Shown one piece after another: positions 2,699 through 18,947 of a DNA stretch of 20,000 nt. The notes below the pieces were generated by a model, which was not told the DNA's origin, did not search any database, and saw only the letters and a program-made list of their open reading frames with translations. Numbering within the stretch: the stretch's first letter is position 1; each line of letters starts with the position of its first letter. The translations under genes and the position numbers were made by a program. Source of the stretch: Pseudogymnoascus verrucosus (lineage: Eukaryota); NCBI GenBank assembly GCA_001662655.1, contig KV460251.1, one strand, 5' to 3'.

Positions 2699-3667
2699 TT
2701 ATACATGATGTGAACAAGCACCTCCTTCTTCAGTTTTGCTAGCCTCATTCATCGGAGAAGGGTTGTCCTCGTCCTTGGGCCTCGGCTCGAGATTCGAGCC
2801 GTCTTTTTGCGCTTCACCTCCACAAGGTTCTTGCTCCGGAAACACTAAAATGCTCTCGTGGAGAGAAGTGTGGATCTGCGCAGATAGTCTTTCCAGATAT
2901 GGATGGCGAAGGACCTCACCAATAGAGCATATCTTGGCCTTTTCCGTCTTGTAGCCCTCGAGCATCGGCGATACTGGTCCCTTCGGCTCAGGCGGGCATC
3001 CGCAAGATCCTAGATCTGCAGCACACTCGCGCCGGTGAGTGTGCTCCCATTCACCCCATTGGGTCATAAAGTCGCTGTCCGCTTCTTTGAACGTGTCGTA
3101 TGCGTCAATATACTCCGCAATCTTAGCAAGGTCGATGCATCCACTATGCTCGAACCATTTCCGCAGCATCAGGCCCCATGTCCAAGGCCAGCCGTCACGC
3201 CACCTATAACCGTTCATATCAAGCTTAAATCGAGACGGAGCTAGCGATGATAACGTAATCATCTTCTCTAGGCAGGATATGTGGAAATACTGGTCTTCGT
3301 CACTCACAAGGACAGCTCTGTAAACATCCATGATGCGACGACCCTTGTCACTTGGCGACATAGCCGCGATAGGGCACGATACTGCCCGGCATTCTGCGCG
3401 TACCATATGTCCTGGCGGAGACCGCTGAAGGAGAATGGCGATTGCGGGTTCGCACTCGAGCCGGCGTTGTAGCTCTTGTCCATTTTCTCGCATCCTTTCC
3501 TCCGGGGTTAGACGGGATTGTCTCTCTTCTTCAGCATCGATCTCCTCCTGCATCCGCACCAAGTCCATTCGCGAAAGGAGCTGTGTATATCTCTCGATTC
3601 TTGCGATCCTTGCTGAAGACGGGGATCTCCGACGGCTCCGTCGAGACAGATGAGGTGTCCTGTCCAT
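2699..3667 (-). CDS. Intronless 322-aa hypothetical protein with a PARP-type zinc-finger-like motif
   Basis: Long ATG-initiated ORF. RAECRAVSC...RI...YR......YFHISCLE (C-x4-C...H-x2-C) resembles zf-PARP spacing; second cluster HRRECAADLGSCGC; basic N-terminus RRSRRR. Confidence 0.7.
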   Translation of the reverse strand: MDRTPHLSRRSRRRSPSSARIARIERYTQLLSRMDLVRMQEEIDAEEERQSRLTPEERMRENGQELQRRLECEPAIAILLQRSPPGHMVRAECRAVSCPIAAMSPSDKGRRIMDVYRAVLVSDEDQYFHISCLEKMITLSSLAPSRFKLDMNGYRWRDGWPWTWGLMLRKWFEHSGCIDLAKIAEYIDAYDTFKEADSDFMTQWGEWEHTHRRECAADLGSCGCPPEPKGPVSPMLEGYKTEKAKICSIGEVLRHPYLERLSAQIHTSLHESILVFPEQEPCGGEAQKDGSNLEPRPKDEDNPSPMNEASKTEEGGACSHHV

Positions 3668-4010
3668 TGCCTTTGCGAGGAAGAAGGGACGAGTTGGTAG
3701 TAAGTATATTGATTTAACGGCAGAGGAGTCCGCTTTCGTACTACACTCGAACCTCCTTAAGACGATACCCCTTATGCCTATATCCTCGATAGTGCGATTT
3801 TTTTGGCGGAACCAAATCTTGACTGGTGGTGTAAATAGTATTCAATAGCACGATATCCTCATAAGACGACACTAAATAATGGCACGGAATACATCGTCTT
3901 AAAGAGGTTCGACTGTATGTAGTCTACGGGCTGGCTTCGGCCTGAAGAGATCATCCGGCTTGGCAACTTGCCCTGTGATTCGCACGCGACAGCTTCGTGT
4001 AACATACATG

Positions 4011-4160
4011 ATGCGGCCTTTCGCGAGCCCCGAGGCAGATTTCCAGAATTCACCAACTGTTTTGCGTTTCCGTGAAGCCGTTGTCTTCATCGAAGACACA
4101 GGATGCAGCCTTTCGAAAGGCCCTAGGCAGATTTCAGAATCCACCAATCGTTTCGCTTTT
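4011..4160 (+). repeat. Cluster 1 of a dispersed ~90-bp repeat module (42-bp core at 4065-4106)
   Basis: Core cgtttccgtgaagccgttgtcttcatcgaagacacaggatgc, flanked by two AGGCAGATTT..GAAT.CACCAA blocks. Similar to the reverse complement of 16583-16790 and to 18672-18891. Confidence 0.8.
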
Positions 4161-5035
4161 TGTTATGGGGTTCTTAAGTGAGCAAGCAGCGTGGAAGTTG
4201 CAGCAACTTGCGGGTTGAATCACCAGAGACCAGCCAGCTCATGCTCTGTAAGCGCTTATAAACCCATCATTCCCGAGCCTAAGGGGGCTTGGCCACCGCA
4301 GGGAACGGGAAGCACGAGACGTTGTTGCAGGTAGAGGCTTCTCACCAGAGGATGGAAAACAAGAAGCCGTGTTGTGCATAATTCTAAAAACAGTCCTTTG
4401 TGCCAACGAGAAACTAGGCTCTGCAATCAGCGAATAAGAAACCCGACTCTGAAGCTAGGCATCAACTTTTGGCTACTACTGTAGCTCCGGAAAACTCACA
4501 AAAAGCAGCACTGGTACTTGTTTCCCGTTATCCCGTTTCCGTCAACAATCTTTGATGGTCTAACGGTCATTTGGACCATCCACAATCTTGGTGCATCCGG
4601 GTTCGTGTTTCCTGGATGCTGTTTGTAGTTTTCGTGATTTCGATTACTGAAATCGGAGGATTGTTTTCCCGTTCACCGCGATTCGTGCCTGAGAAACGAC
4701 ATCGAGATTCCCGCTGTCAGTTTCCAGGAAACCAGAGACTATTTTCTGGTTCTTGACTTTATACATTTTATACCGGTCCCCGTTTCCCGTTTTCCTAGAT
4801 CCACGAAACGGTTTCCTCAGCCTAGAATGTAAGTCCAACAGTCAGTTTTTCCACTTTTAGATGTATCCTTGGCTGGTGTGTAGTGGCCTTGCTGTGCCCA
4901 TCTGCGGCTAAGTATATGAACTCTCTTTCTGTCTCTTTTCTCTCCTGTTCCCATTATATTTTACCACGTCTATCGTTTTGTTCCTCAATCAAGACGTTTG
5001 CCCTTTTAATTCCTGTTTTATCTGATCATTTCACA

Positions 5036-7123
5036 ATGATACCTGGTGATGTAGAATGGCTTTCTCTCCAATTTGCCAACTTGGCATCCTTGCCAGCGCC
5101 AGTACAACGGCCTATGAAAGCGAAAAAAAAGGTTACAACTGCTACTGAGCGGCTTTATGATATCGAGGAAAAGTCTTGGGAACAGTGAGTTAGCCCATGT
5201 CTATCACAGACTACAAAATTAAAAGATACCAAGGTTCAGATCAAATCTCGAGAAACCCGGGGACCCAGAAATCCGCCCTGAGCTGTCGGTGCTTCAGCTC
5301 TACTTCAAATGGTTTGCTATAACGCATAAAGGAAAACTAGGTCCTAGACCAAGCATAAGCACCTTGGTATGGAGGGTTGGCAGATTCTCATACATGTATG
5401 CGGATCGCCATGGCATAGACATTCCCGACGACGTGAAGGATGGCGTTGTTCAAGTGAGTTACTTAGGTTTACGAGAAAGAAGACTGGACGCTAACTGATA
5501 ATATCTAGTACATTCAAAATGATTTAGCGGCTGAACTGCACCTGACGTCTAAAACATATGACAAGAATTTTGCAACGGATGAAGACGTTTCCGAGATGCT
5601 GAAATACCTCTGGACTGAAGATACACATTGCTATCTCAATGAACGCATGCGAGTGCAAGGGGCTTTTTTTAAAGCCTTCTTGAGAGCTACAGCATCAAGA
5701 CCTGGCGCTTTTACACGCTCTGAGTGCTACCGTGATAGTAACATTGCCTTGTGCTACAAAGTAAGCATCTACACCAATCAAAGAGCTTAAGTTAACCATC
5801 AATAGGATGTAGAGGTGTGGGCCATTCGAAAGAAGCAGGGTGGTGTACGTTACAGGCTCGATGTGACATTTCATAATATGAAAGGTGCACGGCTAGATCC
5901 CTCAAAATTGCAAGTAACAACTCCCATTAATGCGGATTATACTAACCTTAGAGAAGTCTGACACTAACCATCGAGGAAAAATACTTGGAAGATCTAGGGT
6001 CATCAGTTGTGTTTCTGTTCTTAGTACTTGGGTGGATGGATCGAGCATTCGAGAATATCACGAGCTTGCACCAACTATTCCATCTCGAAGGCTTCATCCC
6101 GGATGGCGCGAGCGCCATCCGCCTTCCAGTTGCAGCTGCAGCTCGTACTCAGCCCATTCTCCGCAGGATGGAGAAGCGCGGAAGTAAGCGCATATCAAAG
6201 ACTCTGGCTTGGTCATCAGGGTCAGCACTGCAACAACTAAAGAGAGTCTGCGAAGCGGGTGGCTGGCCCCAGAGGATGACCGCATATAATGTGCGTCGAG
6301 GGGGATTAAACAAACTAGACGGTAAGTCACACAACATAGTCTCATTATACGTCTAGAAAGTAACAAATAAACAGGGGATCCAAATACATCATCTGCACAG
6401 AGAAATCAAATTGCGGGCCAAGGCAATTCCGCGGTCTTTACTAGGGCGTATCTGTCACGTCACTCGGCTGTGAAGATTTTTAAAGGTCGAGCAACGCATG
6501 TCAAAAATGAAGACGACGATGATGATGATGACGACGTACGAGGTATGCGACTCTTGAGAGACCGGAGCGCACCTCAAACTTTACCAGACCACCTCTGGGA
6601 ACAGATCATGCAGGCAGACAGAGATTTGAAAACCATCGATGAGAATCGACAACTCGTTCGACAACTCCTTCGCCGAGAATTAGCTTTGCTAGGTGCTGAT
6701 CGTTCCTCAACCAACGTAACAGCTCTTGAAAGGGAGCTTTATAACTCCAGCAGAAAGTTCCATCAGCGAAAACAGAACCTGAAAAGGCAAGAGTACCTCA
6801 AGTTTAGGGCTGAATGGTTTAAATCGCGAGCCTCGAAAATTCTCGCGTCCTCGAACGAATCGCAGTTACAGAAACCGATTACGGCCACTGAATTCTCCCC
6901 AGCTAGGAAGGCTGTCATAGAGGCGTTGTACCCAGCGGATCCTAGCAAACTCTCAATGTTCTCTGCCGCAAAGGCACTCATCTTCTTTGTCGAAACCTCG
7001 GATGGAGTACGTGCTAGTATTGCTAGTGAAAGGAAGAGGCGGCTTGATCCTGCCATTTTACCAGGCAAGAAGAGGAGGCAGGGAGACTCGATTACCTTTA
7101 TCGCCTGCTCGCCGACGATTTAG
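5036..7123 (+). CDS. DUF3435 tyrosine recombinase (Starship captain-like), ~615 aa; exons 5036-5184, 5234-5453, 5509-5760, 5806-~5913, ~5952-6321, 6375-7123
   Basis: Five short introns restore one frame (intron 4 boundaries ambiguous: GT 5914/AG 5951 or GC 5910/AG 5953). DUF3435-type motifs: YLWTEDTH..NERMRVQ, TASRPGAF (catalytic Arg), LCYK|DVEV, MKG, TAYNVRRG, QRNQIAGQGNSAVFTRAYLS (catalytic Tyr, codon 6449-6451). Confidence 0.85.
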
Positions 7124-7470
7124 GTCGTAGAATCTAATTTAAATGGCGACAGTCATTTGCTGTCACATATTTGCTATACGGGATAGGGATTTCTTTCGGG
7201 GCACAATTGGCAGTTGTTAAGCAGGGCAGCTATTTATTTCCGTACCACGTATCCTAATGTCATCCTATTTAACGCAGCAACTCAGCATGACTTATAAGCC
7301 CCAACCTTGGTCACAACTTAGGTATCCCAGAATGATGCAGTGATATTTGCTCAATTCGACGATACCGACCCATACTGTTATGCGCTCTTTTGAAGCTGTG
7401 GATCCGTCATTTACAGGCTAAATCAGAGTAGAGATATGTAGGCCATGGGATATCAGGATATAGTCATATA

Positions 7471-7954
7471 ACGTCCGTCCCTAAGTGGCGAAAAAACCGC
7501 TGTGCCGAAAAAAATAAGAGGTACTTTGACTTTGGACATCTCAAATTCTACACACTTATCAATATCTGTTACATTACTGCATGAATCGTATTCTATAGCT
7601 ACTCCTGAGCACCCCAGACGGCTCCTTTAAGAAAATTATGTTTGCGCTGCCACTGTCGCGCCTGATTTGCAGATGGTCTGCATTTGTTGCGAAACATACT
7701 TCCCCCACCATAGCTCCACCACTAAGCTCTTATTATTCCCAAAACGTATAAGAGGGTTGTACCCGAGCTCTTAAACCCTCACAGCCAAGCGGGAGATCGT
7801 CATCAGCCATGTGGTGGTAGTGCGGGGCAAATTCATGTATGGTTGCCATGGAAATTAATACCTCAAGCCAAAGCGACTAGTGGTTTTTCGGTTAGTGTAT
7901 ATTGACCCCCACGTCTGAGATGTGAACTCGCTTATGTCATCATCTGGCAAGGCT
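7471..7954 (+). repeat. Left terminal inverted repeat (484 bp)
   Basis: Ungapped reverse-complement match to 14929-15412; 7698-7940 is identical to 14943-15185. Confidence 0.95.
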
Positions 7955-8118
7955 CTTATCAGCCACACCGCGTGTGGCTGATGAGGGTTGTGGTTGGCGA
8001 GGCTGAACTGTAGGTCTTCTTCTGGAACTTTCCATGAGCGACCAACTGCTTTCGCTCTGGGCTGAGCTGCCACTGAACTGTTCCTGTCACTATCTTCATA
8101 TTCACCAGTAAGTAAGCC

Positions 8119-9834
8119 ATGAGCGACCGCGCCAGTAAAGCTCTTACTGAGGGCTTTTTGCCGGGAGAGACATACGATGCTTTTTCAAAGCGTAAAGATG
8201 TCCCTCTCACTACCGTCTACCACCGTGACCATGGGCGACCCTCGAAAGAAGAGAAGGCCGAAGGCCAACTATACCTCACTCCGTCAGAAGAGAAAGCCCT
8301 TGAAAAGTATCTGAAACTAACATCTGATCTCGGAAATCATGTGCGAATAAAGTTTATACCCTCACTAGCATTTAGTATCGCCCGCCAACGTTCTACGACA
8401 GATAAGGCGATCAAGCCTCCAGGCAAGAACTGGCCTCAAGGCTTTATAAAGCGTCATCCAGCACTCAAATCAAGGAGACTGAGGGCGATGGACTGGAAAC
8501 GTCATGACAATAACATCTATAATAAGGTTATAAACTGGTTTGAGGTGATTGAGAATGTAGTAAAAGATCCGACCATTCTGTCGGAAAATGTGTATAATAT
8601 GGACGAGACGGGAGTTATGTTATGCATGCTTGGCTCTGTCAAAGTCCTTGTAAGTAAGGACGATCCGCGGGGCTACAGAGGCGCAGGCGTCAAGCGAACG
8701 ATGGTGACTGCCATTGAGTGTATAAGTGCAAACGGTAGGTCTTTGTTACCATTGATTATTTGGCCAGCGACTACCCATCGAAGCAACTGGACCACGTTCC
8801 CTACCCCTGGATGGCACTACGCATGGTCCGAATCTGGATACACCGACTCCAAGATTAGCTTGGAGTGGCTCACGTGTGTGTTCGATCCCCAAACCAAAGA
8901 ACAGGCGAACGGGAAACCACGGGTGCTCATCTGCGACGGCTTTGGGACCCACGAAACCCTCGAAGTGTTGGAGTTTTGTTTCGAAAACAACATAATTTTA
9001 TGTCGTCTCCCGTCTCATACCTCTCACAAGCTCCAGCCCTGTGACGTCGGAGTCTTTGCCCCCTTAAAGGCAGCATATCGCGACGAAGCTGAACGACTAT
9101 ATCGGGTTACAAATGCAATCGGCAAGGAGCATTTCACATCTCTCTACAGCCCTGCAAGGGATAAGGCGTTCACGAAGAGAAATATCACTGCTGCATGGGC
9201 TGCAAGTGGTTTGTTTCCATTCAACCCAGACAGAGTGCTCAAAACTATACTGAAGCCCCCCTCTCAACTAACCATTCCACATGCTGATGGGGTGGGTTCT
9301 TGTCTTCAAGACGAAGTGCTAAACTCGCCTGTGACTCCAGTGTCAGCAGAGGCTCTTACGTCGCTGCATAATCTTATCAAACAGGACCAGTCTAGTACAC
9401 AGCGCCAACAAAGGCATGTACAGAAGCTTGCTAACGCCGCCCAAATGTCCTTCGCCGAAGTTGCTCTCCTCCGAGATGAAAAGCAATCCTTGATCACAAT
9501 AGCCAACGAATCCAAAGTTCGCCGTTCGACCAAGTCAACAGTAGTAGGGAAGGCGAAGGTGATGAGCTATGAGGATATCGTGAAGGCACGAGCAGACCGT
9601 GCTGCGAAAGACATTATAAAAGGCAAGGGAAAACGCAGTCGGAAGCGTAAGGCGCTAGAGGCATGTGAGCAAGAGCTAGAGCCAGAAGTGGCGTATGCTG
9701 TGAAAGAGGTAAAAAACGGCAAGGGAATACGTAGTCGGAAGCGTAAGAGTGCTGTACCAGAAGCAGATGAGCCAGAGCCAGAGCCAGAGCCAGAACTGGC
9801 GCGGATGACGGCACCAGTGGCGCGGATGATATAG
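8119..9834 (+). CDS. Fot1/pogo-family DDD transposase (HTH CENP-B-like + DDE_1), 571 aa, intact
   Basis: N-terminal HTH region (VPLTTVYHR..GRPS, YLTPSEEKAL, PGKNWPQGFIKRHP). Triad YNMDETG / LICDGFGTH / LQPCDVGVF with 35 residues between the 2nd and 3rd Asp. Basic C-terminal NLS-like motifs; no stops or frameshifts. Confidence 0.95.
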   Translation: MSDRASKALTEGFLPGETYDAFSKRKDVPLTTVYHRDHGRPSKEEKAEGQLYLTPSEEKALEKYLKLTSDLGNHVRIKFIPSLAFSIARQRSTTDKAIKPPGKNWPQGFIKRHPALKSRRLRAMDWKRHDNNIYNKVINWFEVIENVVKDPTILSENVYNMDETGVMLCMLGSVKVLVSKDDPRGYRGAGVKRTMVTAIECISANGRSLLPLIIWPATTHRSNWTTFPTPGWHYAWSESGYTDSKISLEWLTCVFDPQTKEQANGKPRVLICDGFGTHETLEVLEFCFENNIILCRLPSHTSHKLQPCDVGVFAPLKAAYRDEAERLYRVTNAIGKEHFTSLYSPARDKAFTKRNITAAWAASGLFPFNPDRVLKTILKPPSQLTIPHADGVGSCLQDEVLNSPVTPVSAEALTSLHNLIKQDQSSTQRQQRHVQKLANAAQMSFAEVALLRDEKQSLITIANESKVRRSTKSTVVGKAKVMSYEDIVKARADRAAKDIIKGKGKRSRKRKALEACEQELEPEVAYAVKEVKNGKGIRSRKRKSAVPEADEPEPEPEPELARMTAPVARMI

Positions 9835-10772
9835 GCGCAGGTTATGCAGGGCAGATTGTTCCGGCGGGCTTATAGATCATTATTGTATTGTTGGTCGAAT
9901 GAGGCAGGCCTCGCGAATAGTTACTATGCTACAGTTAGTCTGTCATATTCTCTGTGCAATGGAATGGAGATAGCAATGAATCACCTCTTGCCAGTTATCA
10001 ATGAGTGGTCTTTCGCGCTCATCACGGCAGTCCCGCCTTCAAATGCCAGATGGTATCGAGGGATATTTGTAGTATTGTGTCCGGCGTTCTGCACGTCGTG
10101 TCTCTGCGCGTCAGGTGCTCGAAGCCGTACATAAGTCGGCAATGACATCGACGATGTTGGCGGTGTCGAGTGCCTCCGTCGTAAGCATCGCTTGGTCAGA
10201 CGTGTTGAGAATAGACTCCGCCGTGGATAGTGGAACAGGAAGGGCAGTGGTTTTGGGAAGCCGTGCACATTTTGTTTCGAAGTGCGAAGTTGTTTTCACC
10301 AGTCATCCTCTAGTGAGGATCAGTGATGACAGAATACAATTGTTCAGAAAGATTCAGAAAGTAGCACAGTTCACTGACATGTCTTCGATGGTCGTGAGAC
10401 TGTCGTAAATTGTGAATTTCGGTCAGTGCCTCTTGGTTGGGACCAGATCACGTGTGAGATTGCCAAAGACGTTAATTTCAAGCCACACGCCAGCGAGCCA
10501 AGAAGGCAACCTGGAGCCGGAAAAACTTGAAAACTGATGCCACGAATCGACGGCCCCACGAATGGTCTTAGTGGAACCCTGATTACGCTACGGGCCGTCG
10601 CACTCCCTTGAAGCGCCGGAGCATTTTAGCGTCGCACGTCACCTGATGAGGCATTTACTCAAGACTCATCAACCTCAGCCCGCCAGCGCGACAATCAATT
10701 TAGCTGACGGTCTCGTCTTTACGCTTCACTTCTATCTAAAGAGCAACGACAATCTCATACATCGATCGAACC

Positions 10773-13700
10773 ATGCAGCAAGTAATGTCTACCAAGCATG
10801 CCAGAGAGCCTAATCCAGTCGATACAACAGGACTATGTCTACTGTCTCTAGATGGCGGCGGCGTGCGAGGACTTTCAACGCTCTACATATTAAAAAGCAT
10901 TATGGATCGGCTAAATCACGAACGAAAGAAGACTGCTAATCTTCCGCCGGTGAAGCCATGCGAACTATTTGACCTTATTGGAGGTACAAGTACTGGCGGG
11001 TGAGGAGACCTATTTTATAGTAAGCCTCTACTAATGTAATCATAAGATTGATTGCGATTATGCTTGGCCGGCTCGAGATGGACGTGGATGAGTGTATTAC
11101 CGCATATAGTAATCTCGCGGCAGCCATTTTCAGTGAGAAAATAAGTCAGGTCCCAGTTAACATAAAGGGTAAAATAAAGCCGCGGTTCGACTCGGCCAAA
11201 CTGGAAAGTGCGATCCGAAAGGCGGTAGCACAGAGTGGTGTATCCGAGACAGACTTGTTCAATGATGGGACTGAGCGTGGATGTAGAACGTGAGTGCTCT
11301 ACCAAAACAAGAAGATGCAGTTCTAACGATATCAGCTTTGTGTGTACTGCCGACCGCGACACGAAGGACATTGTCCGTCTCCGAAGCTATAGCCTTATTG
11401 ACGAGCCGAATATTCATGCGACGATATGCCAGGCTGCTCTTGCAACATCCGCTGCTACAACATTCTTTGATCCCGTCAGCATTGGGGATCGTGCGTTCGC
11501 TGATGGCGGCCTTGGTGCAAATAATCCAGTGGACGAAGTTGAGGGAGAGGCGTCAAACATCTGGTGTTCGGAAACTGGAGATTTGAAGCCTCTAGTCAAG
11601 TGTTTTATATCAATTGGGACGGGGAACCCCGGCAAGACGGCATTCGAAGATGGCATATTTAAGTTTCTCGGCCAGACTGTGGTGGATATCGCGACCGAGA
11701 CGGAGAATACAGAGAAGAAATTTATAGCCAGGTGGGCGAAGCATTTTGACGAAAGCCGATACTTTCGTTTTAATGTTGATCAGGGTCTGCAGACCATTGG
11801 GCTTGACGAGTACAAGAAGAAGGGCGCGATAGAATCAGCGACAGGAGGGTATCTAACTCACACAGCACAGAAGTTTCAGGTGCGAGATTGTATCCAGAAC
11901 ATGAAGCTAAAGCAGAGTGTGTATAATGAGGACTATTCGTAGCAATTCTAATGAACCATTAGGCTGATAGTCTACAGTTAAAACTGATCCTTCGTTTGCC
12001 GCCTTGATAAGTGTGAGCTAGATGATACTATATTGGCCTATCTTTACTAAAGTTGAGTAGAAATACACCATTCGACAACACTCAGGTATGGCGTGGTAAA
12101 CTTTGAATTATTATTCATGAGGAAATACCTGCTAACTCATTACTTTAGGGAGTGGCGCTACAATCTTTGGAAATGTACATTGGATAGTGCCCCGTCCTGT
12201 CAATGATCTATTCACAGGGCGTATCGAGCTACTGGATCGGATGAAGAAGGCCTTGTCCACTATCAATACTCCTCCTACTGACAAACGGAAGATATTCGTT
12301 ATTACAGGGCTAGGAGGACAAGGAAAGAGCGAAATCTGTCTGCAAGTTGCGAACCTGATGCGGAAGGAGTATGTTCTAATCTTGCCTCTGGTGTTGCTGT
12401 CCTAGCTTACAAGAGCAGATTCTGGGGGATATTCTGGGTCAACGTTGACATGCTTTCCACTGCTACAGATGGCTTTATCACTATTGCAGAAACTCTTGGA
12501 TCCGCGGTCAAAGATGTTCCTAGTGCTCTTCGAGCTCTTGCAAAAGCTGAGCGAAACTGGCTCCTTATTCTCGACAACGCTGACACCCCAGATTTTGACT
12601 ATCAGGTCTACCTTCCATCTGGGACTCACGGTGCTATTATTATAACATCTCGAAATTCTGAATGTAGTCAGTATAATACAGTAGGGGCTGAGGTTATAAA
12701 GGCTCTTAAAGACCAAGATTCTCAAGAGCTTTTATTTAAAGCAGCTAACCTTCCTCAAGATTCATGGTCGTTATACGCTAGTCAAGCTACAGAAATTCTC
12801 CACCTACTAGGATCACATACTCTCGCGCTAATCCAGGCTGGCGCGTATATTGCAAGAGGCCACTGCAAACTACACGAATACCCAAATGAATATCGACGGC
12901 AGCGAAAGCGACTGCTAGAGTTCCGGCCAAAACAAGCACGGTCGACGTATGGCGATGTTTATGCGACCTTCGAGGCATCGGCATATGTGTTAAAGCAGTC
13001 CAAGAGCGAGGCTGCAAGTGACGCTCTGCAATTACTCGGAATTCTTTCAATGCTCGACTCTAGCATCCTCCCTCTCCAACTCTTTCAAAATACATGGGAG
13101 GGATGTAGAAAAGTTCTCCACACTAATCGTATAGAGGAATGTGGTATAGATGTGACTACAAGTCACGTTTTACAATTACCTGCCTTTGTAATGGCAGATG
13201 ATGACGAATGGGATTCTTACCGCCTCACTAAGGCCAGAGATTTATTAGCATCACTTTCTCTGGTTACCCAGCACAATTTAGATGGCTCGCCCGGATTATC
13301 AATGCACCCTTTAATACATGCTTGGGCCAAGGACCGTCAGGACTTAGAGAAGCAAGGCATAACTTGGATATCTACTGGGTGTGTGCTTGCGCTTTCCCGA
13401 TTCAATACTCAATGGCGGACACAAGAGAGGCGACTACTACCACATGTCCAGACTTTTGTGGACATCAGGAATAATAGGGAAGTCTCACTTGGGTCTGAAC
13501 CTATAGTTGTTCCAATTCTTCTTGAATGTGGCTGGATCCTGCTAGACATGCGGCAGGACTCTAAACTTGACGGCCTATTAAAAGATATATTTGTTCAACT
13601 TGGAAAAAAGCCCGATGAACTATCAAAAGAGTTTCTGCCATTATATAACATCCAAGCAAGGAGCTTGGTAAATCTAGGACATTATAAGAAGGCAGTCAAG

Positions 13701-14621
13701 CTGTTAGAGCAGATGGTTGAGGTCGAAGAGGCTACTCTGGCTAAGGATGACCCAGACCGGCTGGCATCGCAGCACGTACTTGCAGAAGCTTATCAGGCAA
13801 ACGGACAGGTGAAAGAGGCAGTCAAGCTACTACAGCAGGTGGTCAAGATCAGAAAGGCTACTCTAGCCGAGAATCATCTAGACCGGCTAGCGTCGCAGCG
13901 CGCACTTGCAATTGCTTATCAGGCCAATGGACAAGTGAAAGAGGCAGTCAAGCTACTACAACAGGTGGTTGACATTGGAGAGGCTACTCTAGCTAAGGAT
14001 GACCCAGACCGACTAGCGTCACAGCACACACTTGCAATTGCTTATCAGGCAAACGGACAGGTAAAAGAGGCAATCAAGCTACTAAAGCAGGTGGTTAAGA
14101 TCGAAGAGGCTACTCTAGCTGAGGATCACCCAGACCGCCTAGCGTCACAGCACGCACTTGCAGGTGCTTATCAGGCGAACGGACAGGTGAAAGAGGCAGC
14201 CAAGCTGCTACAGCAGGTGGTTGAGATTGGAGAGGCTACTCTAGCTAAGGATCACCCAAACCAGCTTGCTTCGCAGCAAGCACTTGCAGTTGCCTATCAA
14301 TCAAACGGACAGGTGAAAGAGGCAGTCAAGCTACTACAGCAGGTGGTTGAGATTGGAGAGGCTACTCTAGCTAAGGATCACCCAAACCAGCTTGATTCGC
14401 AGCAAGCACTTGCGATTGCCTATCAATCGAACGGACAGGTGAAAGAGGCAGTCAAGCTACTACAGCAGGTGGTTAAAATCAGAAAGGCTACTCTGGCTAA
14501 GGATCACCCAAGCCGGCTGAAATCGCAGCACGCACTTGCAATTGCATCACGCCAACGGACAGGTGAAAGAGGGAGCCGAGCTAGAGCACGTGGTCGAGAC
14601 CAGAGAGGCTACTCTAGCTAA
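10773..14621 (+). CDS. Patatin-like phospholipase - NB-ARC - TPR NLR (PLP-1-like architecture), ~1177 aa; exons 10773-10999, 11047-11289, 11336-11916, 11978-12012, 12061-12085, 12149-12368, 12419-14621
   Basis: Patatin motifs DGGGVRG, GTSTG (Ser) and DGG (Asp); Walker A GLGGQGKS; Walker B WLLILDNAD; IIITSRN; SMHPLIHAWA; 42-aa TPR-type repeats. Six GT-AG introns give 3534 nt in one frame. Confidence 0.9.
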
Positions 14622-14648
14622 GGATCACCCAGACCAGCGTCGCAGCAC
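13686..14648 (+). repeat. Tandem array of 126-bp (42-aa) TPR-coding units: 7 near-complete plus 1 degenerate
   Basis: Unit starts at 13686, 13812, 13938, 14064, 14190, 14316, 14442 and 14566. Consensus KEAVKLLQQVVxIxxATLAKDHPDRLASQHALAxAYQANGQV. Confidence 0.95.
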
Positions 14649-14928
14649 TGAGGATCAGACGTTGACTGTTGCGATTCACTGGTTGCTGGAGGTGTCAAAG
14701 GAAATGGAATCTGCCTATCTGGCGGTGTCCCATCAGCAGATGGAGGGACAGTAGGCTTCAAAGCTGAGAATCTCTTCACATCATTCATTGCTCGGTTAGT
14801 GATGAGTTGCGGCGTTGTGTTGCGTTATTGATCCGGGAGCCCGCCAGCTTCGGATTATTGGAGGTCTCTACGGTAACCTTGATCTCTTTTGTGAAGCGAT
14901 TTATCACGTGGGTAAAACAGAGCCACGC

Positions 14929-15412
14929 AGCCTTGCCACATAATGACATAAGCGAGTTCACATCTCAGACGTGGGGGTCAATATACACTAACCGAAAAAC
15001 CACTAGTCGCTTTGGCTTGAGGTATTAATTTCCATGGCAACCATACATGAATTTGCCCCGCACTACCACCACATGGCTGATGACGATCTCCCGCTTGGCT
15101 GTGAGGGTTTAAGAGCTCGGGTACAACCCTCTTATACGTTTTGGGAATAATAAGAGCTTAGTGGTGGAGCTATGGTGGGGGAAGTCTGTTTCGTAACAAA
15201 TGCAAACCCTCTGCAAATCAGTCGCAATAGTGGCAACGCAAACATAATTTTCTTAAAGGAGTGGTCTAGGGTGCTTACGAGTAGCTGTAGAATACGTTTC
15301 ATGCAAAAATGTAAGAGATATCAATAAATGTGTAGAATTTGAGATGCCTAAAGTCAAAGTACCTACCTTTTTTTTCGGCACGGTGGGGTTTTCGCCACTC
15401 AGGGACGGACGT
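14929..15412 (-). repeat. Right terminal inverted repeat (484 bp)
   Basis: Reverse complement of 7471-7954, followed by TA. Confidence 0.95.
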
Positions 15413-15811
15413 TATTTATGCCTAGAACACCTCTTGGGATACTGTTTAAATTGGAGTGTTTCTTTCGATGTCTGTAACCGCTGTCCCGCGATTTGGCTCT
15501 CTCCACTCCGCCACGTACAGAGGTAGTGGTTCGCGTTGGTAGGTACTTACGCCTGGAACTACCCCAACTGGCTCACCGAGAACCCCCTGCAGTACGTACG
15601 TACTCTAAACAATTGAACAATATAAACCACCCATTCCTTCCTATTGCCATCGCTCAGTTCGCGGTCTTCCATCCACAATATCATCCACCTGTCACCACAA
15701 CCATTCCCTCCTATGCTCACCAAAACTAAACCCCCAAGCACAAATACCGCCCGCTAGTTTCACCTCCCGCCTGCCGGCGCATTTGTGCGCAGCAGCGCCT
15801 TTTCGCTCGGA

Positions 15812-16071
15812 ATGTCGACAAACGCCGCTAACGCTCTTCTCGCGGAATCAAGAGCACTCTCAAAGTACGTTGCCGGAGAGAACTAGCCTTAAGACATTAT
15901 ATAGATTGCTTGTGAATAGCACTAACTATAAGCAGTGGTATTAATCCATCGATGCCGCTCGACTTTGGGCCCCCTAATGCCGGTTTACCATTTCCTGATT
16001 TCTCCTTTCTGAAGTCTGGGAAAAGCAGCGACACTTTAGCGCTCGGTTGCCTAGAATTGATTTGGATCTAG
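15812..16071 (+). CDS. Possible small spliced gene or gene relic (~62 aa); exons 15812-15864, 15936-16071
   Basis: ATG, donor GTACGT at 15865, branch ACTAAC and CAG acceptor at 15935 give MSTNAANALLAESRALSNGINPSMPLDFGPP...; no recognisable domain. Confidence 0.25.
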
Positions 16072-16436
16072 ACATGGGGACGCGTGATTCAAGCCTAATA
16101 ATTGGTTCGGAGAGTCCAGCTCCTTGCCCCAATGTTGAAGGTGCATCGGCCAATGTCTGCGCTTTACTCTGCGTCTAAAGGCATCTACCCCTGTATATTG
16201 TGGATGCAGTACGGAGCCTCCGTACCTCTAGACAATCAACCTCTGAACAGCCGATTTACCGTTTCCGTGATTTAGTGTGGTGTTTTTAGATAAAAGCGGC
16301 ATTGGCCTTAGAACCACTCTCACGATACAGCAACTGGTTATCAAGTTTCCATAAACAGGAACTTCAAAGTCGTCTCATTCAGCGACCATCTCTGGCAGAG
16401 ATGCCTAATTCTCTGTGAGCTGCCATCGCTTTTGCT

Positions 16437-16790
16437 GCCAAGACCACCACCAAAACCGTCCCCTGTTGTCAGCCTTCCGCTTCCGTGTTCCCGCTCTTAG
16501 GCCATTGCTGCTTTTACTTTCACTGCCACTGGGCACGTCCATCTCCACCTTCGACGACCGCCGAAGCGGCCTAAGAACGCTTAAAAACGCGAAAATGTTG
16601 GTCGATTTCTGAATCTGCCTGGGGCCTCACAAAAGGCCGCATCCTGTGTCTTTGATTACGACGACGGCTTCATGGAAACGGGGAATGGTTGGTCGATTTC
16701 CGAAATCTGCCTCGAGCCTGTGTATTCGATCACGACAGCGGCTTCCTGGAAACGCGAAACGGTTGGTCGATTGTGATGTCTGCCTCGGGC
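16437..16790 (-). repeat. Cluster 2 of the dispersed repeat module (cores 16639-16680, 16717-16754) plus a 58-bp block 16437-16494
   Basis: Inverted relative to clusters 1 and 3. The 58-bp block matches the reverse complement of 18890-18947 at 53/58. Confidence 0.8.
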
Positions 16791-17376
16791 CTCTCGACTG
16801 TTGTATGGGTGGTGCTACGCTCAACGAACCAGAAAGGGGCGACGTCCAGCAGTAGCAGTCTAATCGGAAGCATCAAAGGTATTGTATTATCTACTGATCT
16901 ATCTGTAACTATTCGCCGAGTTCCCCTGAGAGAACTCAGACTCTAGGCGCTAGACTGAATGAATATATACTCATCTTATAATGTCTCACATATTTCCGAG
17001 CATGTGACCTGTACCCAACTGACACCCGCGGATCGTCAGATGACGGCCAAGGATCAAAAGTTGATTAGAGAAATCGGGTTCAGAGGCAATTCGAGGAGGA
17101 GGGATTTCCTAAGATCGCGGATCAATGGTCGGATTGATGGTTGACTTATCAGAGCAATGAGGACTAATATCTATTTTGTTCTAAACTGTTTCTAGCAGGT
17201 AGATATAGTCTCATCACATCACGTTAGAGGTCTGCGTCGTCCGACTCCCAATGGGCCCGATCATCAGGCCACTTATCATGCCATATACTTCAAGCCCTTT
17301 CTAGTCGTTCTGTAGCAATGTGTTTATAGTATGGTGGCATACCCTCGAATACACTTATTGCGTTACAAGCTTCGAC

Positions 17377-18516
17377 CTACTGACCCTCTGAAATGAGATT
17401 AGTGCAGATCTCTTCAAGTACACGGAATAAGTCGTTGGCATCTGCGGTATGGCGACATGTCGAGGGATCGCATATGCACTGCACCCCGCTATGAAAATCG
17501 GCATGGCGGCTAGGGCGGCCTTCGTCCTCGAGGAGCATCAACTCTGCTACTACTTTGTAGCCCCTGACCCATAGAGATTCCTGGACGTGAAGATGGAGTA
17601 TAGCCTTAAGCACTTCAGCTAGGTTGTTAGTGTGCTTCTTCTTCCTTTCATGATGGTTCCATTCGAGATGCCTCTTCCCTCACGACGCCGCTGTATTTCA
17701 TGGTAGCTTTTTAACGCCCCTAATACGTACCCCACGTTGTACTCCTGGCCTTCTAACACGCCTTGTCGTATTATTTCTCGCTGTCTTGAAGCAAATTGAT
17801 CTAGGATCCATAGTTCCATCCTTATGCCAGTGATAACAACTTTATCAGAGCCATCTTCTAAGCATTCGAGTGCCATAATCGCACCCGCCCAGGCCGCCCA
17901 TGATATTTCCAGAACAACGTGGTCGTATATAGTGTGTAGAGACAAAAGCAATGTGTCATAGTCTTGAGCACCTAATCTGTGGCGAAGGTGTTCCATGAAG
18001 AACCAAGTTTTCTGTACTGAACCTTCTACATATAAGGTGCCTTTCCAAGTAGCTTCAAGAAGCATTAGAGCCACTTTTGGATCTCCTTTTATATGTTCGG
18101 TGATAGCGTCAGCTCCATCGTGATATGTAAGCTCTCCCCTTCTAAATTCTTTAGCGTAGGCAGAGTGGAAAAACACCTTCTTTCTCCTATTAAAGACAGC
18201 CCTAAACACCTTAGATACTTGAGAAAGATTCAAAAGCGTTTTTCGGTCTGAAATTTCGAAAAAAAAAAAAAAAAAAAAACTTATGTCTTTAATTCAGTAG
18301 GTAATAGGGACAAATTGTCAGGGCCACTAATATGTGGCGGCAGGCATTGCTTCTTTAGTAGTAATTTCCCATCCCGGATAGGGCTCTCTATGCACTATTA
18401 GCGCAGGCTGGTATGTAAATAATAATACTATTACCTCCTAGCCTCTTACGTCTCGCCACTACCTTGAGACCAGCCCGATCGTCAGCTTCAGTATCTGATA
18501 CTAAGGTATCTGACAT
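17377..18516 (-). pseudogene. F-box domain gene, disrupted by an in-frame TAA and a poly(T)21 frameshift; introns 18434-18388 and 17683-17619
   Basis: Minus strand reads ...DNLSLLPTELKT*V(polyT)FEISDRKTLLNLSQVSKVFR, an F-box-like pattern (L..LP.E.......L..L..VSK.FR). Stop at 18283-18281; A21 at 18259-18279 shifts the frame. A 65-bp intron joins the 204-aa and 78-aa ORFs in frame. Confidence 0.7.
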
Positions 18517-18671
18517 GTTGTTTGTCGCACTTAGTCCTTCCTTTTGAGGTTTTTGTAATGTAGATTGTTGTATAAGCGCAGTAAAGCCGATGAAGTTGTT
18601 AAGAGTGCGCGGGTCTTTTATACTTCGTTTGCCCTTGAGATTACATGACCTCTAGGCCACAGGGCAGAGCC

Positions 18672-18947
18672 CATTTCTATGAAGCCGCTATCTAGATTAA
18701 AGACACAGAATGCGGTTTTTTGAGAGGCCTAAGGCAGATATCAGAATCATGCACCCCGTTTCCATGAAGCTGCTGTCGTCATCGCGGACACAGGATTCAG
18801 GGTACTTGACCTCTAGAGGTCAAAGCACCGAAGCCAGCCGACCGTCTCCCGTTTCCACGAAGCCGCTGTCATGATCGAAGACACAGGATGCAGGAACAGG
18901 GAAGCAGAAGGCTGACAACGGAGGACGGTTTTGGTGGTGGTCTTGGC
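18672..18947 (+). repeat. Cluster 3 of the dispersed repeat module (cores 18672-18713, 18757-18798, 18850-18891) plus a 58-bp block 18890-18947
   Basis: Three 42-bp cores spaced 85 and 93 bp apart. Confidence 0.8.

Follow-up and report, generated by a model that had tools for sequence, protein, structure and literature searches.

Results

A pogo-type transposon with an NLR gene between its ends

We analysed a stretch of 20,000 nucleotides of Pseudogymnoascus verrucosus DNA (contig KV460251.1 of assembly GCA_001662655.1), which we call the window. At its centre is a DNA transposon of the pogo/Fot type that encloses a gene of the NOD-like receptor (NLR) kind, and 347 nt separate the start of this transposon from the stop codon of a DUF3435 tyrosine-recombinase gene. 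The transposon consists of the following parts.

7471-15412: pogo/Fot-type transposon, 7,942 bp; ends and TA flanks read base by base
7469-7470: TA target-site duplication, left copy
7471-7954, + strand: left terminal inverted repeat, with terminus ACGTCCGTCCCTAAGTGGCG
8119-9834, + strand: pogo/Fot-type DDE transposase gene, an uninterrupted open reading frame (ORF) of 571 aa
10094-10379, + strand: conserved 3' region of the pogo family
10773-14621, + strand: cargo gene, an NLR of patatin-NB-ARC-TPR type, with introns near 11003-11040, 11290 and 12400
13551-14640, + strand: array of tetratricopeptide repeats (TPR), seven to eight units of 126 nt, 78-98% alike
14929-15412, - strand: right terminal inverted repeat, from the inverted-repeat search and base-by-base reading
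15413-15414: TA target-site duplication, right copy

A repeat search of the window found an inverted repeat of 487 nt (7468-7954 against 14929-15415) with 93% complementarity, and a blastn self-comparison recovered the same 487 nt at 93.0% (E = 0). Both arms open with ACGTCCGTCCCT, at 7471 and, on the other strand, at 15412, and they mismatch at 34 of 484 aligned positions. The transposase matches DDE_1 (PF03184) with 113.6 bits over profile positions 1-177 of 177 and the Tc5-type helix-turn-helix domain HTH_Tnp_Tc5 (PF03221) with 22.4 bits against a cut-off of 22.2. Its database relatives are 545-617 aa long with coverage of up to 100%, and the best two are 91% and 90% identical. The TA duplication fits the assignment of this transposase to the pogo/Fot group of the Tc1/mariner superfamily. 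By blastn, 10094-10379 matches the region behind the transposase in five metagenome loci of the same family (L003, L004, L021, L033 and L034); therefore the transposon proper reaches to about 10379, and the cargo fills roughly 10380-14928.

The element thus has what characterizes the pogo/Fot group: a transposase with DDE_1 and Tc5-type helix-turn-helix domains, inverted ends, a TA duplication and, as described below, an empty site with a single TA. Copies at other sites were found for the transposon family, not for the cargo-bearing form. Taken together, 7471-15412 is probably an autonomous cut-and-paste transposon of this group that carries an NLR. The initial annotation had described an NLR-bearing pogo that begins at 7471, behind a DUF3435 gene that stops at 7123; both coordinates hold, and the ends, the TA duplications, the transposase and the patatin-NB-ARC-TPR gene inside bear the description out.

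At the 3' end of the transposase gene, in 9600-9801, there is a duplication of 96-108 nt that yields two copies of a basic KGKG(K/I)RSRKRK run and of acidic EPE runs. Possibly it represents a nuclear localisation signal in two copies.

The insertion and its empty site

Logan contigs of four coded runs (X1, X2, X16 and X5, of which X1 is possibly the source run) were compared with the whole window. Depths are given as summed contig depth, which is a rough guide only and not a copy number. One X1 contig and two X2 contigs join position 7468 directly to 15413, skipping 7944 letters and leaving two letters that fit either side, which is the outcome that a single TA would give. Because the contigs of both runs make this joint, the whole unit 7471-15412 is an insertion. 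The X1 contig carries small deletions and indels at 15450, 15462 and 15512, and it therefore represents a diverged paralogue of the flank at another locus. X2 contains the recombinase region 4639-7406 with 23 differences and 13 gaps (about 99%), and X16 contains 4640-7406 with 14 differences and 1 gap (99.5% identical). Since X2 joins 7468 to 15413, the site is empty in a relative whose recombinase gene is nearly identical. The initial annotation had proposed a presence/absence comparison of exactly 7471-15414 as a check, and X2, with the same DUF3435 region and without the insert, gives it a positive outcome. Judged from these contigs, the insertion is real and recent.

The target of the insertion was itself a repeat, here called R, which the transposon splits into two parts.

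7377-7468: repeat R, left part, multi-copy and the target of the pogo element; X2 and X16 contigs stop at 7406, with loose ends of X2 contigs at 7377
15415-16436: repeat R, continuation; X1 summed depth 566 and 1833, where single-copy bins have about 205 (a ratio of 2.7 to 9)

The contigs that cover the recombinase gene in X2 and X16 start at 4639 and 4640 and end at 7406. Because contigs built from 31-mers break at repeat edges, the unique unit extends over about 4670-7376, and the pogo element sits about 90 nt inside repeat R. In X1, the bins of 15342-16675 have 2.7 to 9 times the single-copy depth and those of 6004-7337 about twice that depth, with a second contig that differs at 6198. A paralogous stretch in X1 covers at least about 6170-7468 plus 15413-15512 and is free of the pogo element. 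From this stretch and the depth it follows that the 3' part of the recombinase gene and repeat R were duplicated together, and that the pogo element lies inside a repeated unit.

Other copies of the transposon ends are present in these runs. Contig matches that start or stop at a pogo end, the contig running on into unlike sequence, number three at 7469 in X16, and one at 7470 and five at 15414 in X5. Summed depth in X5 is 101-191 over the ends and the transposase and 0-23 over 10006-13340, and one X1 contig joins 9843 to 14968. The X5 depth pattern and this X1 joint indicate that forms without the present cargo exist, one of them in X1.

Separately, the first 37 nt of the pogo end (7469-7505) are joined to 16437 and to 18557, in one contig each in X1, X2 and X16. 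The sequences flanking these 37 nt resemble the terminus of a foldback-type element (opposite strand), described below, and the region of that element at 18557. Going by these contigs, a conserved locus elsewhere appears to hold a solo pogo end.

The cargo gene

All three domains of the patatin-NB-ARC-TPR type of NLR are present in the cargo: a patatin domain, a STAND NTPase and C-terminal repeats. Patatin (PF01734) matches lie at 10740-11003 and 11229-11942, with 28.4 and 36.8 bits on two exon pieces. The translation has a Walker A motif, GLGGQGKS, near 12330; for the NTPase part, our own Pfam scan of the exon pieces returned only a weak match to nSTAND_NTPase5 (19.4 bits). The large cargo ORF is 100% identical to a database protein of 1,177 aa (P0037, named in its source as a hypothetical protein of Pseudogymnoascus verrucosus), which has patatin, NB-ARC (PF00931, a precomputed match) and TPR domains and in which the lipase motifs GGGVRG, GTSTG and DGG are intact. 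The C-terminal repeats match TPR_12 with 229 bits and TPR_10 with 187 bits. In fungal NLRs, patatin is nearly always paired with NB-ARC and is found about 1.7 times per species (Dyrka et al. 2014, PMC4986451).

The last TPR unit is spaced by 121 nt and not by 126 nt, which shifts the frame near 14535-14545. The tail of the ORF, up to its stop at 14621, is consequently TPR sequence out of frame, and P0037 has the same tail. Either a real frameshift or an assembly error would account for it.

Part of the cargo is found elsewhere. A 17-kb X2 contig contains the segment 12550-13775, in the NB-ARC part, in a version with 18 gaps and 108 differences, and among the Logan contigs of X2 neither the transposase nor the patatin part is covered at a likeness of at least 85%. 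A relative of the cargo in a run with no such transposase fits the capture of a host-type NLR, as a compatible observation and not as proof.

Another Pseudogymnoascus strain has an 82% relative of the patatin NLR (P0039) on a contig of 5,319 nt and a 90% relative of the transposase (P0159) on a contig of 5,961 nt. Contigs this short would fit a repeat-bounded, NLR-bearing pogo element in that strain too.

NLR-type genes recur beside the transposase in related loci

With transposase peptides alone we fetched 80 metagenome loci of the family, at 46-84% identity. The terminal motif ACGTCC(G/A)TCCCT, directly behind its flanking TA, is present in 15 of them. After 10 redundant loci were dropped, genes of the NLR, HET, HeLo and patatin kinds were counted by hand in the remaining 70 from tblastn and Pfam results. 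Of these genes, 23 fall into the 201 kb of flank up to 3 kb from the transposase and 4 into the 188 kb beyond, that is, 11.4 against 2.1 per 100 kb, a density 5.4-fold higher within 3 kb (binomial p = 3e-4). About half of the roughly 60 flank genes with any Pfam match are of this kind. For comparison, a published survey gives a mean of 46 NLRs per fungal genome (PMC4986451).

Three further elements have an NLR between TA-flanked family ends.

L010: arms at 279-703 and 7802-8226 (432 nt, 73%), with degenerate termini near 264 and 8236; transposase 1161-2921, NACHT 4491-5366, WD40 6264-7214
L062: termini at 3228 and 9115; a truncated transposase, and a DUF7708-NACHT-WD40 gene on the other strand
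L018+L054: 531-nt arms (87%), with ACATCCC behind the TA at both ends; a NACHT-WD40 gene inside

In several more loci the contig ends inside an NLR that follows the transposase on the same strand at a distance of 0.2-2.4 kb: HET-NACHT in L001/L002, NACHT in L057, PNP_UDP-NACHT in L067, HET plus an AAA_16 NTPase in L068, and an NB-ARC-type NLR with TPR in L038. A search with the terminal 12-mer, allowing 2 mismatches, and a blastn inverted-repeat search found no right terminus between transposase and NLR in L001, L002, L057, L067, L068 or L038. An NLR or HET gene lies on the other strand in L031, L077 and L055, a HeLo gene lies on the other strand in L050, and NLRs lie upstream of the transposase in L017 and L008. 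Members of this pogo lineage thus often have an NLR, HET or HeLo gene beside the transposase, and in several that gene can be shown to lie within the inverted ends.

In a 47-row tree of the transposase, rows with an NLR are dispersed over the branches, and two sisters, L018 and L068 (SH-aLRT 100), carry NLRs of different classes. Scatter and the differing sisters together favour repeated capture or exchange of cargo over one old acquisition.

A different account of the association would be insertion preference: pogo elements might land, or survive, in compartments rich in repeats and in NLR and HET genes, with most of the NLRs resident outside the elements. Several observations are of the kind that such a preference would produce. 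Most loci show adjacency only; in L008 a right arm was found but, within 10 kb, no left one, L031 contains several nested arm copies, and the NLR of L033 is 6 kb away. In Podospora, NLRs with highly conserved repeats have flanks rich in transposable elements, 23.4% against 2.4% for random genes (PMC13449251), and part of the NLR enrichment is possibly regional because NLR flanks are of this nature. Preference of insertion accounts poorly, however, for the four elements, that of the window included, in which the NLR lies between TA-flanked family ends, for the window insertion as a single 7.9-kb unit, for the six loci in which neither search found a right terminus splitting transposase from NLR, and for the 5.4-fold drop in density beyond 3 kb. 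We consider this explanation improbable.

The proposal we prefer, and consider probable, is that the pogo element carries its NLR with it. In this scheme, the 571-aa transposase would bind the long inverted ends, excise the element and paste it into a TA, and everything between the ends would travel along, including a complete patatin-NB-ARC-TPR NLR located between the conserved 3' region and the right end. The element of the window entered as one piece into a TA inside the repeat about 250 nt behind the DUF3435 gene, and the pogo lineage would act as a small shuttle that copies and moves fungal NLR-type genes.

A number of points weigh against this proposal or narrow it. The joints in the Logan contigs are marked 'between: not known', so a few extra letters may be present there. 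Depth in X1 over 10006-13340 is at the single-copy level, and the cargo-bearing form is thus seen once; with no second insertion site seen for the 7.9-kb form, its movement together with the cargo rests on one empty site. The cargo could also have entered a pogo element already in place; a search of 9835-15000 for nested ends or duplications around the cargo found none, and no signature of its route of entry. With its frameshifted tail, the NLR may be impaired. As to the family, L018+L054 was joined from two contigs that overlap by 1,623 identical bases, and five of the loci (L008, L017, L031, L014 and L016) show adjacency only. The density comparison is a hand count, and only four elements, that of the window included, have both of their ends; contigs from related metagenome samples lack independence even once redundant loci are removed; and such genes are probably denser than the genome average in the zone beyond 3 kb as well.

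Our main new result is at the level of the family: these pogo elements look like recurrent carriers of NLR-type genes. Tentatively, and at somewhat below even chances, we go further and propose that the lineage is a dedicated carrier of genes for non-self recognition and cell death (NLR, HET, HeLo-SesB and patatin) that swaps its cargo between copies. In that role it would serve as a general vehicle by which NLR repertoires in Leotiomycetes and Dothideomycetes undergo fast birth, death and duplication, and perhaps spread horizontally; it would also supply the patatin-like phospholipase (PLP) and NLR genes that make recombinase neighbourhoods look 'Starship-like'. The cargo may in turn serve the transposon, for example by penalising fusion with strains that do not have it, in a possible parallel to the defence genes on bacterial mobile elements; any benefit to transposon or host is putative. 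A transposon with a whole NLR between its ends and an empty site in a relative is a concrete and testable vehicle for NLR mobility. If the family-wide pattern holds in complete genomes, it would offer a simple mechanism for the duplication and relocation of NLRs, and a eukaryotic counterpart of the immune genes on bacterial mobile elements.

Further observations on the family loci

Two candidates among the family loci were rejected. A 410-nt inverted pair in L014 might have been taken for transposon ends; it overlaps SesB-coding ORFs and probably represents two NLR 5' ends. L033 and L034 looked like compact copies free of cargo, since they share 3,422 nt from the left terminus, and the shared part has no inverted end. 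In L021 and L006, a terminus lies 4.4-5.3 kb from the transposase, and there is no Pfam match between the two.

In L014 (1507-2376) and L016 (301-1101), the transposase is preceded at about 520 nt, on its own strand, by a gene with HeLo and SesB, which codes for a cell-death executioner carrying an amyloid signalling motif. These two loci are sisters on the transposase tree, and L014 also has a divergent adjoining NLR.

In L062, two left family ends of the same orientation, at 30-251 and 3226-3447 (80% alike over 223 nt) and both flanked by TA, enclose a patatin gene at 616-1861. Doubled left ends of this kind could let a neighbouring gene be taken along.

In L024 (2620-5538), L049 (2954-6550) and L074 (5417-8242), which belong to different branches of the tree, a PCA1-type heavy-metal P-type ATPase gene is found 1.2-3 kb from the transposase. 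In L049 a cation-efflux gene is present too, and in L074 a chromate transporter. The metal ATPase genes may be a second kind of cargo, or their position may be due to chance.

The neighbouring recombinase gene and the Starship question

The gene ahead of the transposon, a foldback-type element and a further copy of its arm are located as follows.

5036-7123, + strand: DUF3435 tyrosine-recombinase gene, six exons and five short GT-AG introns, the latter at about 5173/5185-5233/5239, 5445/5454-5508, 5761-5805/5814, 5914-5951 and 6322-6374
16437-18947: foldback-type element; terminal inverted repeats of 58 nt (91%), and in each arm arrays of sub-repeats of about 74-92 nt
3993-4161: third copy of the foldback arm

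Pfam matches to DUF3435 fall in three frames, with 18.8, 49.2 and 22.9 bits, which gives the gene a broken appearance. Relatives from an exhaustive HMMER search (P0004, P0021, P0035, P0020, P0007 and P0003) were compared with the window by tblastn. In the tblastn alignments, the changes of frame are short gaps at which the relatives miss no residues, and both in-frame stops lie within a 15-codon stretch that the relatives do not have. When sets of GT-AG introns are spliced out, 5036-7123 reads as an open frame of 604-612 aa. P0157, a 592-aa database model, is 100% identical to it in the last 250 residues and matches PF11917 with 113.9 bits. As predicted from these alignments, the DUF3435 gene is intact and not broken.

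The recombinase belongs to a small clade. Its best-conserved exon has 36 matches at E <= 0.001 among 1.84 billion representatives, and its C-terminal half matches only two longer proteins, P0157 itself and a 74% relative. Published captains, the recombinases that move Starships, have an RKHRY catalytic pentad (PMC10104507). Aligned with 10 relatives, the window gene has retained Arg, Lys, xxR and Tyr where the alignment conserves them. The GH motif is covered by 8 relatives, of which 6 have its His; the window gene and its nearest relative, P0004, have Gln there. All of these are putative pentad positions, assigned by analogy with other tyrosine recombinases and not from a named captain.

The initial annotation had called this gene Starship captain-like and had suggested that the pogo element may be delivering an NLR into a Starship. 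What stands of that interpretation is that the pogo element with its NLR is a discrete insertion nested in a repeated, recombinase-bearing unit. The link between pogo and DUF3435 is not recurrent: none of the 80 family loci has a DUF3435 relative at E <= 1e-5. Because the element entered as one piece into a nearby repeat, its proximity to the DUF3435 gene is a secondary event.

Were the gene a captain, with the interior of its element downstream, the pogo insertion would have delivered the NLR as cargo, or could export it, and would illustrate one route of cargo loading. The intact gene (P0157 at 113.9 bits, and an open frame with GT-AG introns) suits a captain, and it points toward the pogo element as a captain points into its own. 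Identity over 4640-7406 amounts to 99.5% in X16 and to about 99% in X2; over the left flank, 1-1865, it is 95.3% in X16, and X2 has no match to this flank at a likeness of at least 85%. In this the recombinase region resembles a recently moved segment. The joint duplication of the gene's 3' part and repeat R in X1 places the pogo element within a repeated, recombinase-bearing unit. Under the published co-localisation rule, a DUF3435 gene located together with a PLP and/or NLR gene, without a target-site duplication, is classed as 'Starship-like' (PMC9156397), and the window would fall into that class. A nested transposon of this sort also has a precedent in ToxhAT inside the Starship Sanctuary, discussed below.

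Against the captain stand the extent and content of the window. No element boundary or direct repeat is visible in it; the smallest published Starship carries 15,020 bp (PMC11162782), and the window extends for 12.9 kb downstream of the gene, all of it repeats: R, the pogo element and a foldback element. None of the 24 larger window ORF pieces scanned has a Pfam match to DUF3723 or to ferric reductase (FRE). The sole PLP/NLR gene near the recombinase is the pogo cargo, which is absent from the matching site in X2, so the gene that earns the 'Starship-like' label came with the pogo element. The small clade, the Gln in place of the GH-motif His and the absence of DUF3435 relatives from the 80 family loci point the same way, and we regard a captain at this locus as rather unlikely. 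A caution for other genomes follows: where a DUF3435 gene with a PLP or NLR gene close by is enough for a 'Starship-like' call, an unrelated pogo insertion can supply the second gene, as it does here.

The recombinase might instead belong to a small Crypton-like tyrosine-recombinase element, or be a stranded or domesticated copy, in which case the window would be a nest of transposons in which the pogo element landed. Repeats border the unique unit, only about 2.7 kb long (4670-7376), left and right in three organisms; at 592 aa the protein is short, its clade is small and lineage-restricted, and foldback arms lie on both sides (3993-4161 and 16437-16800). However, the presence of the same flanking repeats in all three organisms makes a larger conserved structure equally possible, and an intact gene that is near-identical across organisms fits recent mobility of something larger. 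This is a plausible reading of the gene, only a little short of an even chance.

One structure that would have enclosed the recombinase was rejected. A 136-nt inverted pair (4026-4161 and 16584-16719) lies on both sides of the gene; compared with the complete foldback element 16437-18947, the termini of both arms point inward. In sum, we regard the NLR shuttle as real and its link to a Starship as unproven.

Comparison with known systems

Classical Fot1/pogo members in fungi are about 2-3 kb long, with short ends and a transposase only. The element of the window shares with this group the DDE_1 domain, the Tc5/CENP-B-type DNA-binding domain, the TA target and the inverted ends, but it is 7.9 kb long, with ends of 484 nt and a second gene of 3.8 kb.

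NLRs of the PLP-1 type (patatin-NB-ARC-TPR) act in allorecognition in Neurospora, Podospora and Cryphonectria. The cargo has the same three-part architecture, intact lipase motifs and highly conserved TPR units. In contrast to PLP-1-type NLRs, it lies inside a transposon, has a frameshifted tail and has no sec-9-like partner gene in view.

The closest published case is ToxhAT (also ToxTA), a 14-kb class II element that carries ToxA, makes a TA duplication, leaves single-TA empty sites and moves as cargo of the Starships Sanctuary and Horizon; it is judged to be probably a non-autonomous Tc1/mariner element (PMC12506042). ToxhAT and the pogo element have in common their inverted ends, the 2-bp TA duplication, the single-TA empty site and a gene for host interaction other than the transposase. 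They differ in that ToxhAT is probably non-autonomous with an effector as cargo, whereas the pogo element has an intact transposase and an NLR. A surrounding Starship is proven for ToxhAT, whereas for the pogo element a surrounding recombinase-led element is only possible. In the pogo element, unlike ToxhAT, the type of cargo recurs across a whole transposase family. That a TA-duplicating transposon with cargo can be nested in a Starship is already published for ToxhAT and is not new.

Starships are moved by a tyrosine recombinase, carry at least 15 kb, have the captain as first gene at a defined boundary and carry PLP and NLR accessory genes (PMC9156397, PMC11162782, PMC10104507). The window resembles them in having a DUF3435 gene near a patatin/NLR gene, and both types of element mobilise NLR-type genes. 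It differs from them in that the NLR would be mobilised by a DDE transposase in an element of 7.9 kb.

Some lineages of fungal DNA transposons encode an accessory TET/JBP dioxygenase that is thought to serve the transposon (PMC12730594). They share with the pogo element a DDE-type family with a recurrent second gene, and differ in superfamily and in the accessory gene. A full-text literature search, which did not extend to subscription journals and supplements, yielded no report of fungal pogo or Tc1/mariner ends that enclose an NLR gene.

Other features of the window

The window is fungal and rich in repeats, with the pogo element in a recombinase-bearing repeated unit amid a transposon nest. 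The foldback arms reach up to 9 times the single-copy depth in X1; an ORF of 224 aa inside the foldback element (17619-18293, - strand) has no Pfam match. In the left flank, the ORFs within 135-1847 and 2699-3841 (238, 309 and 380 aa) belong to no clear family, and one weak ankyrin match of 21.6 bits was recorded among them.

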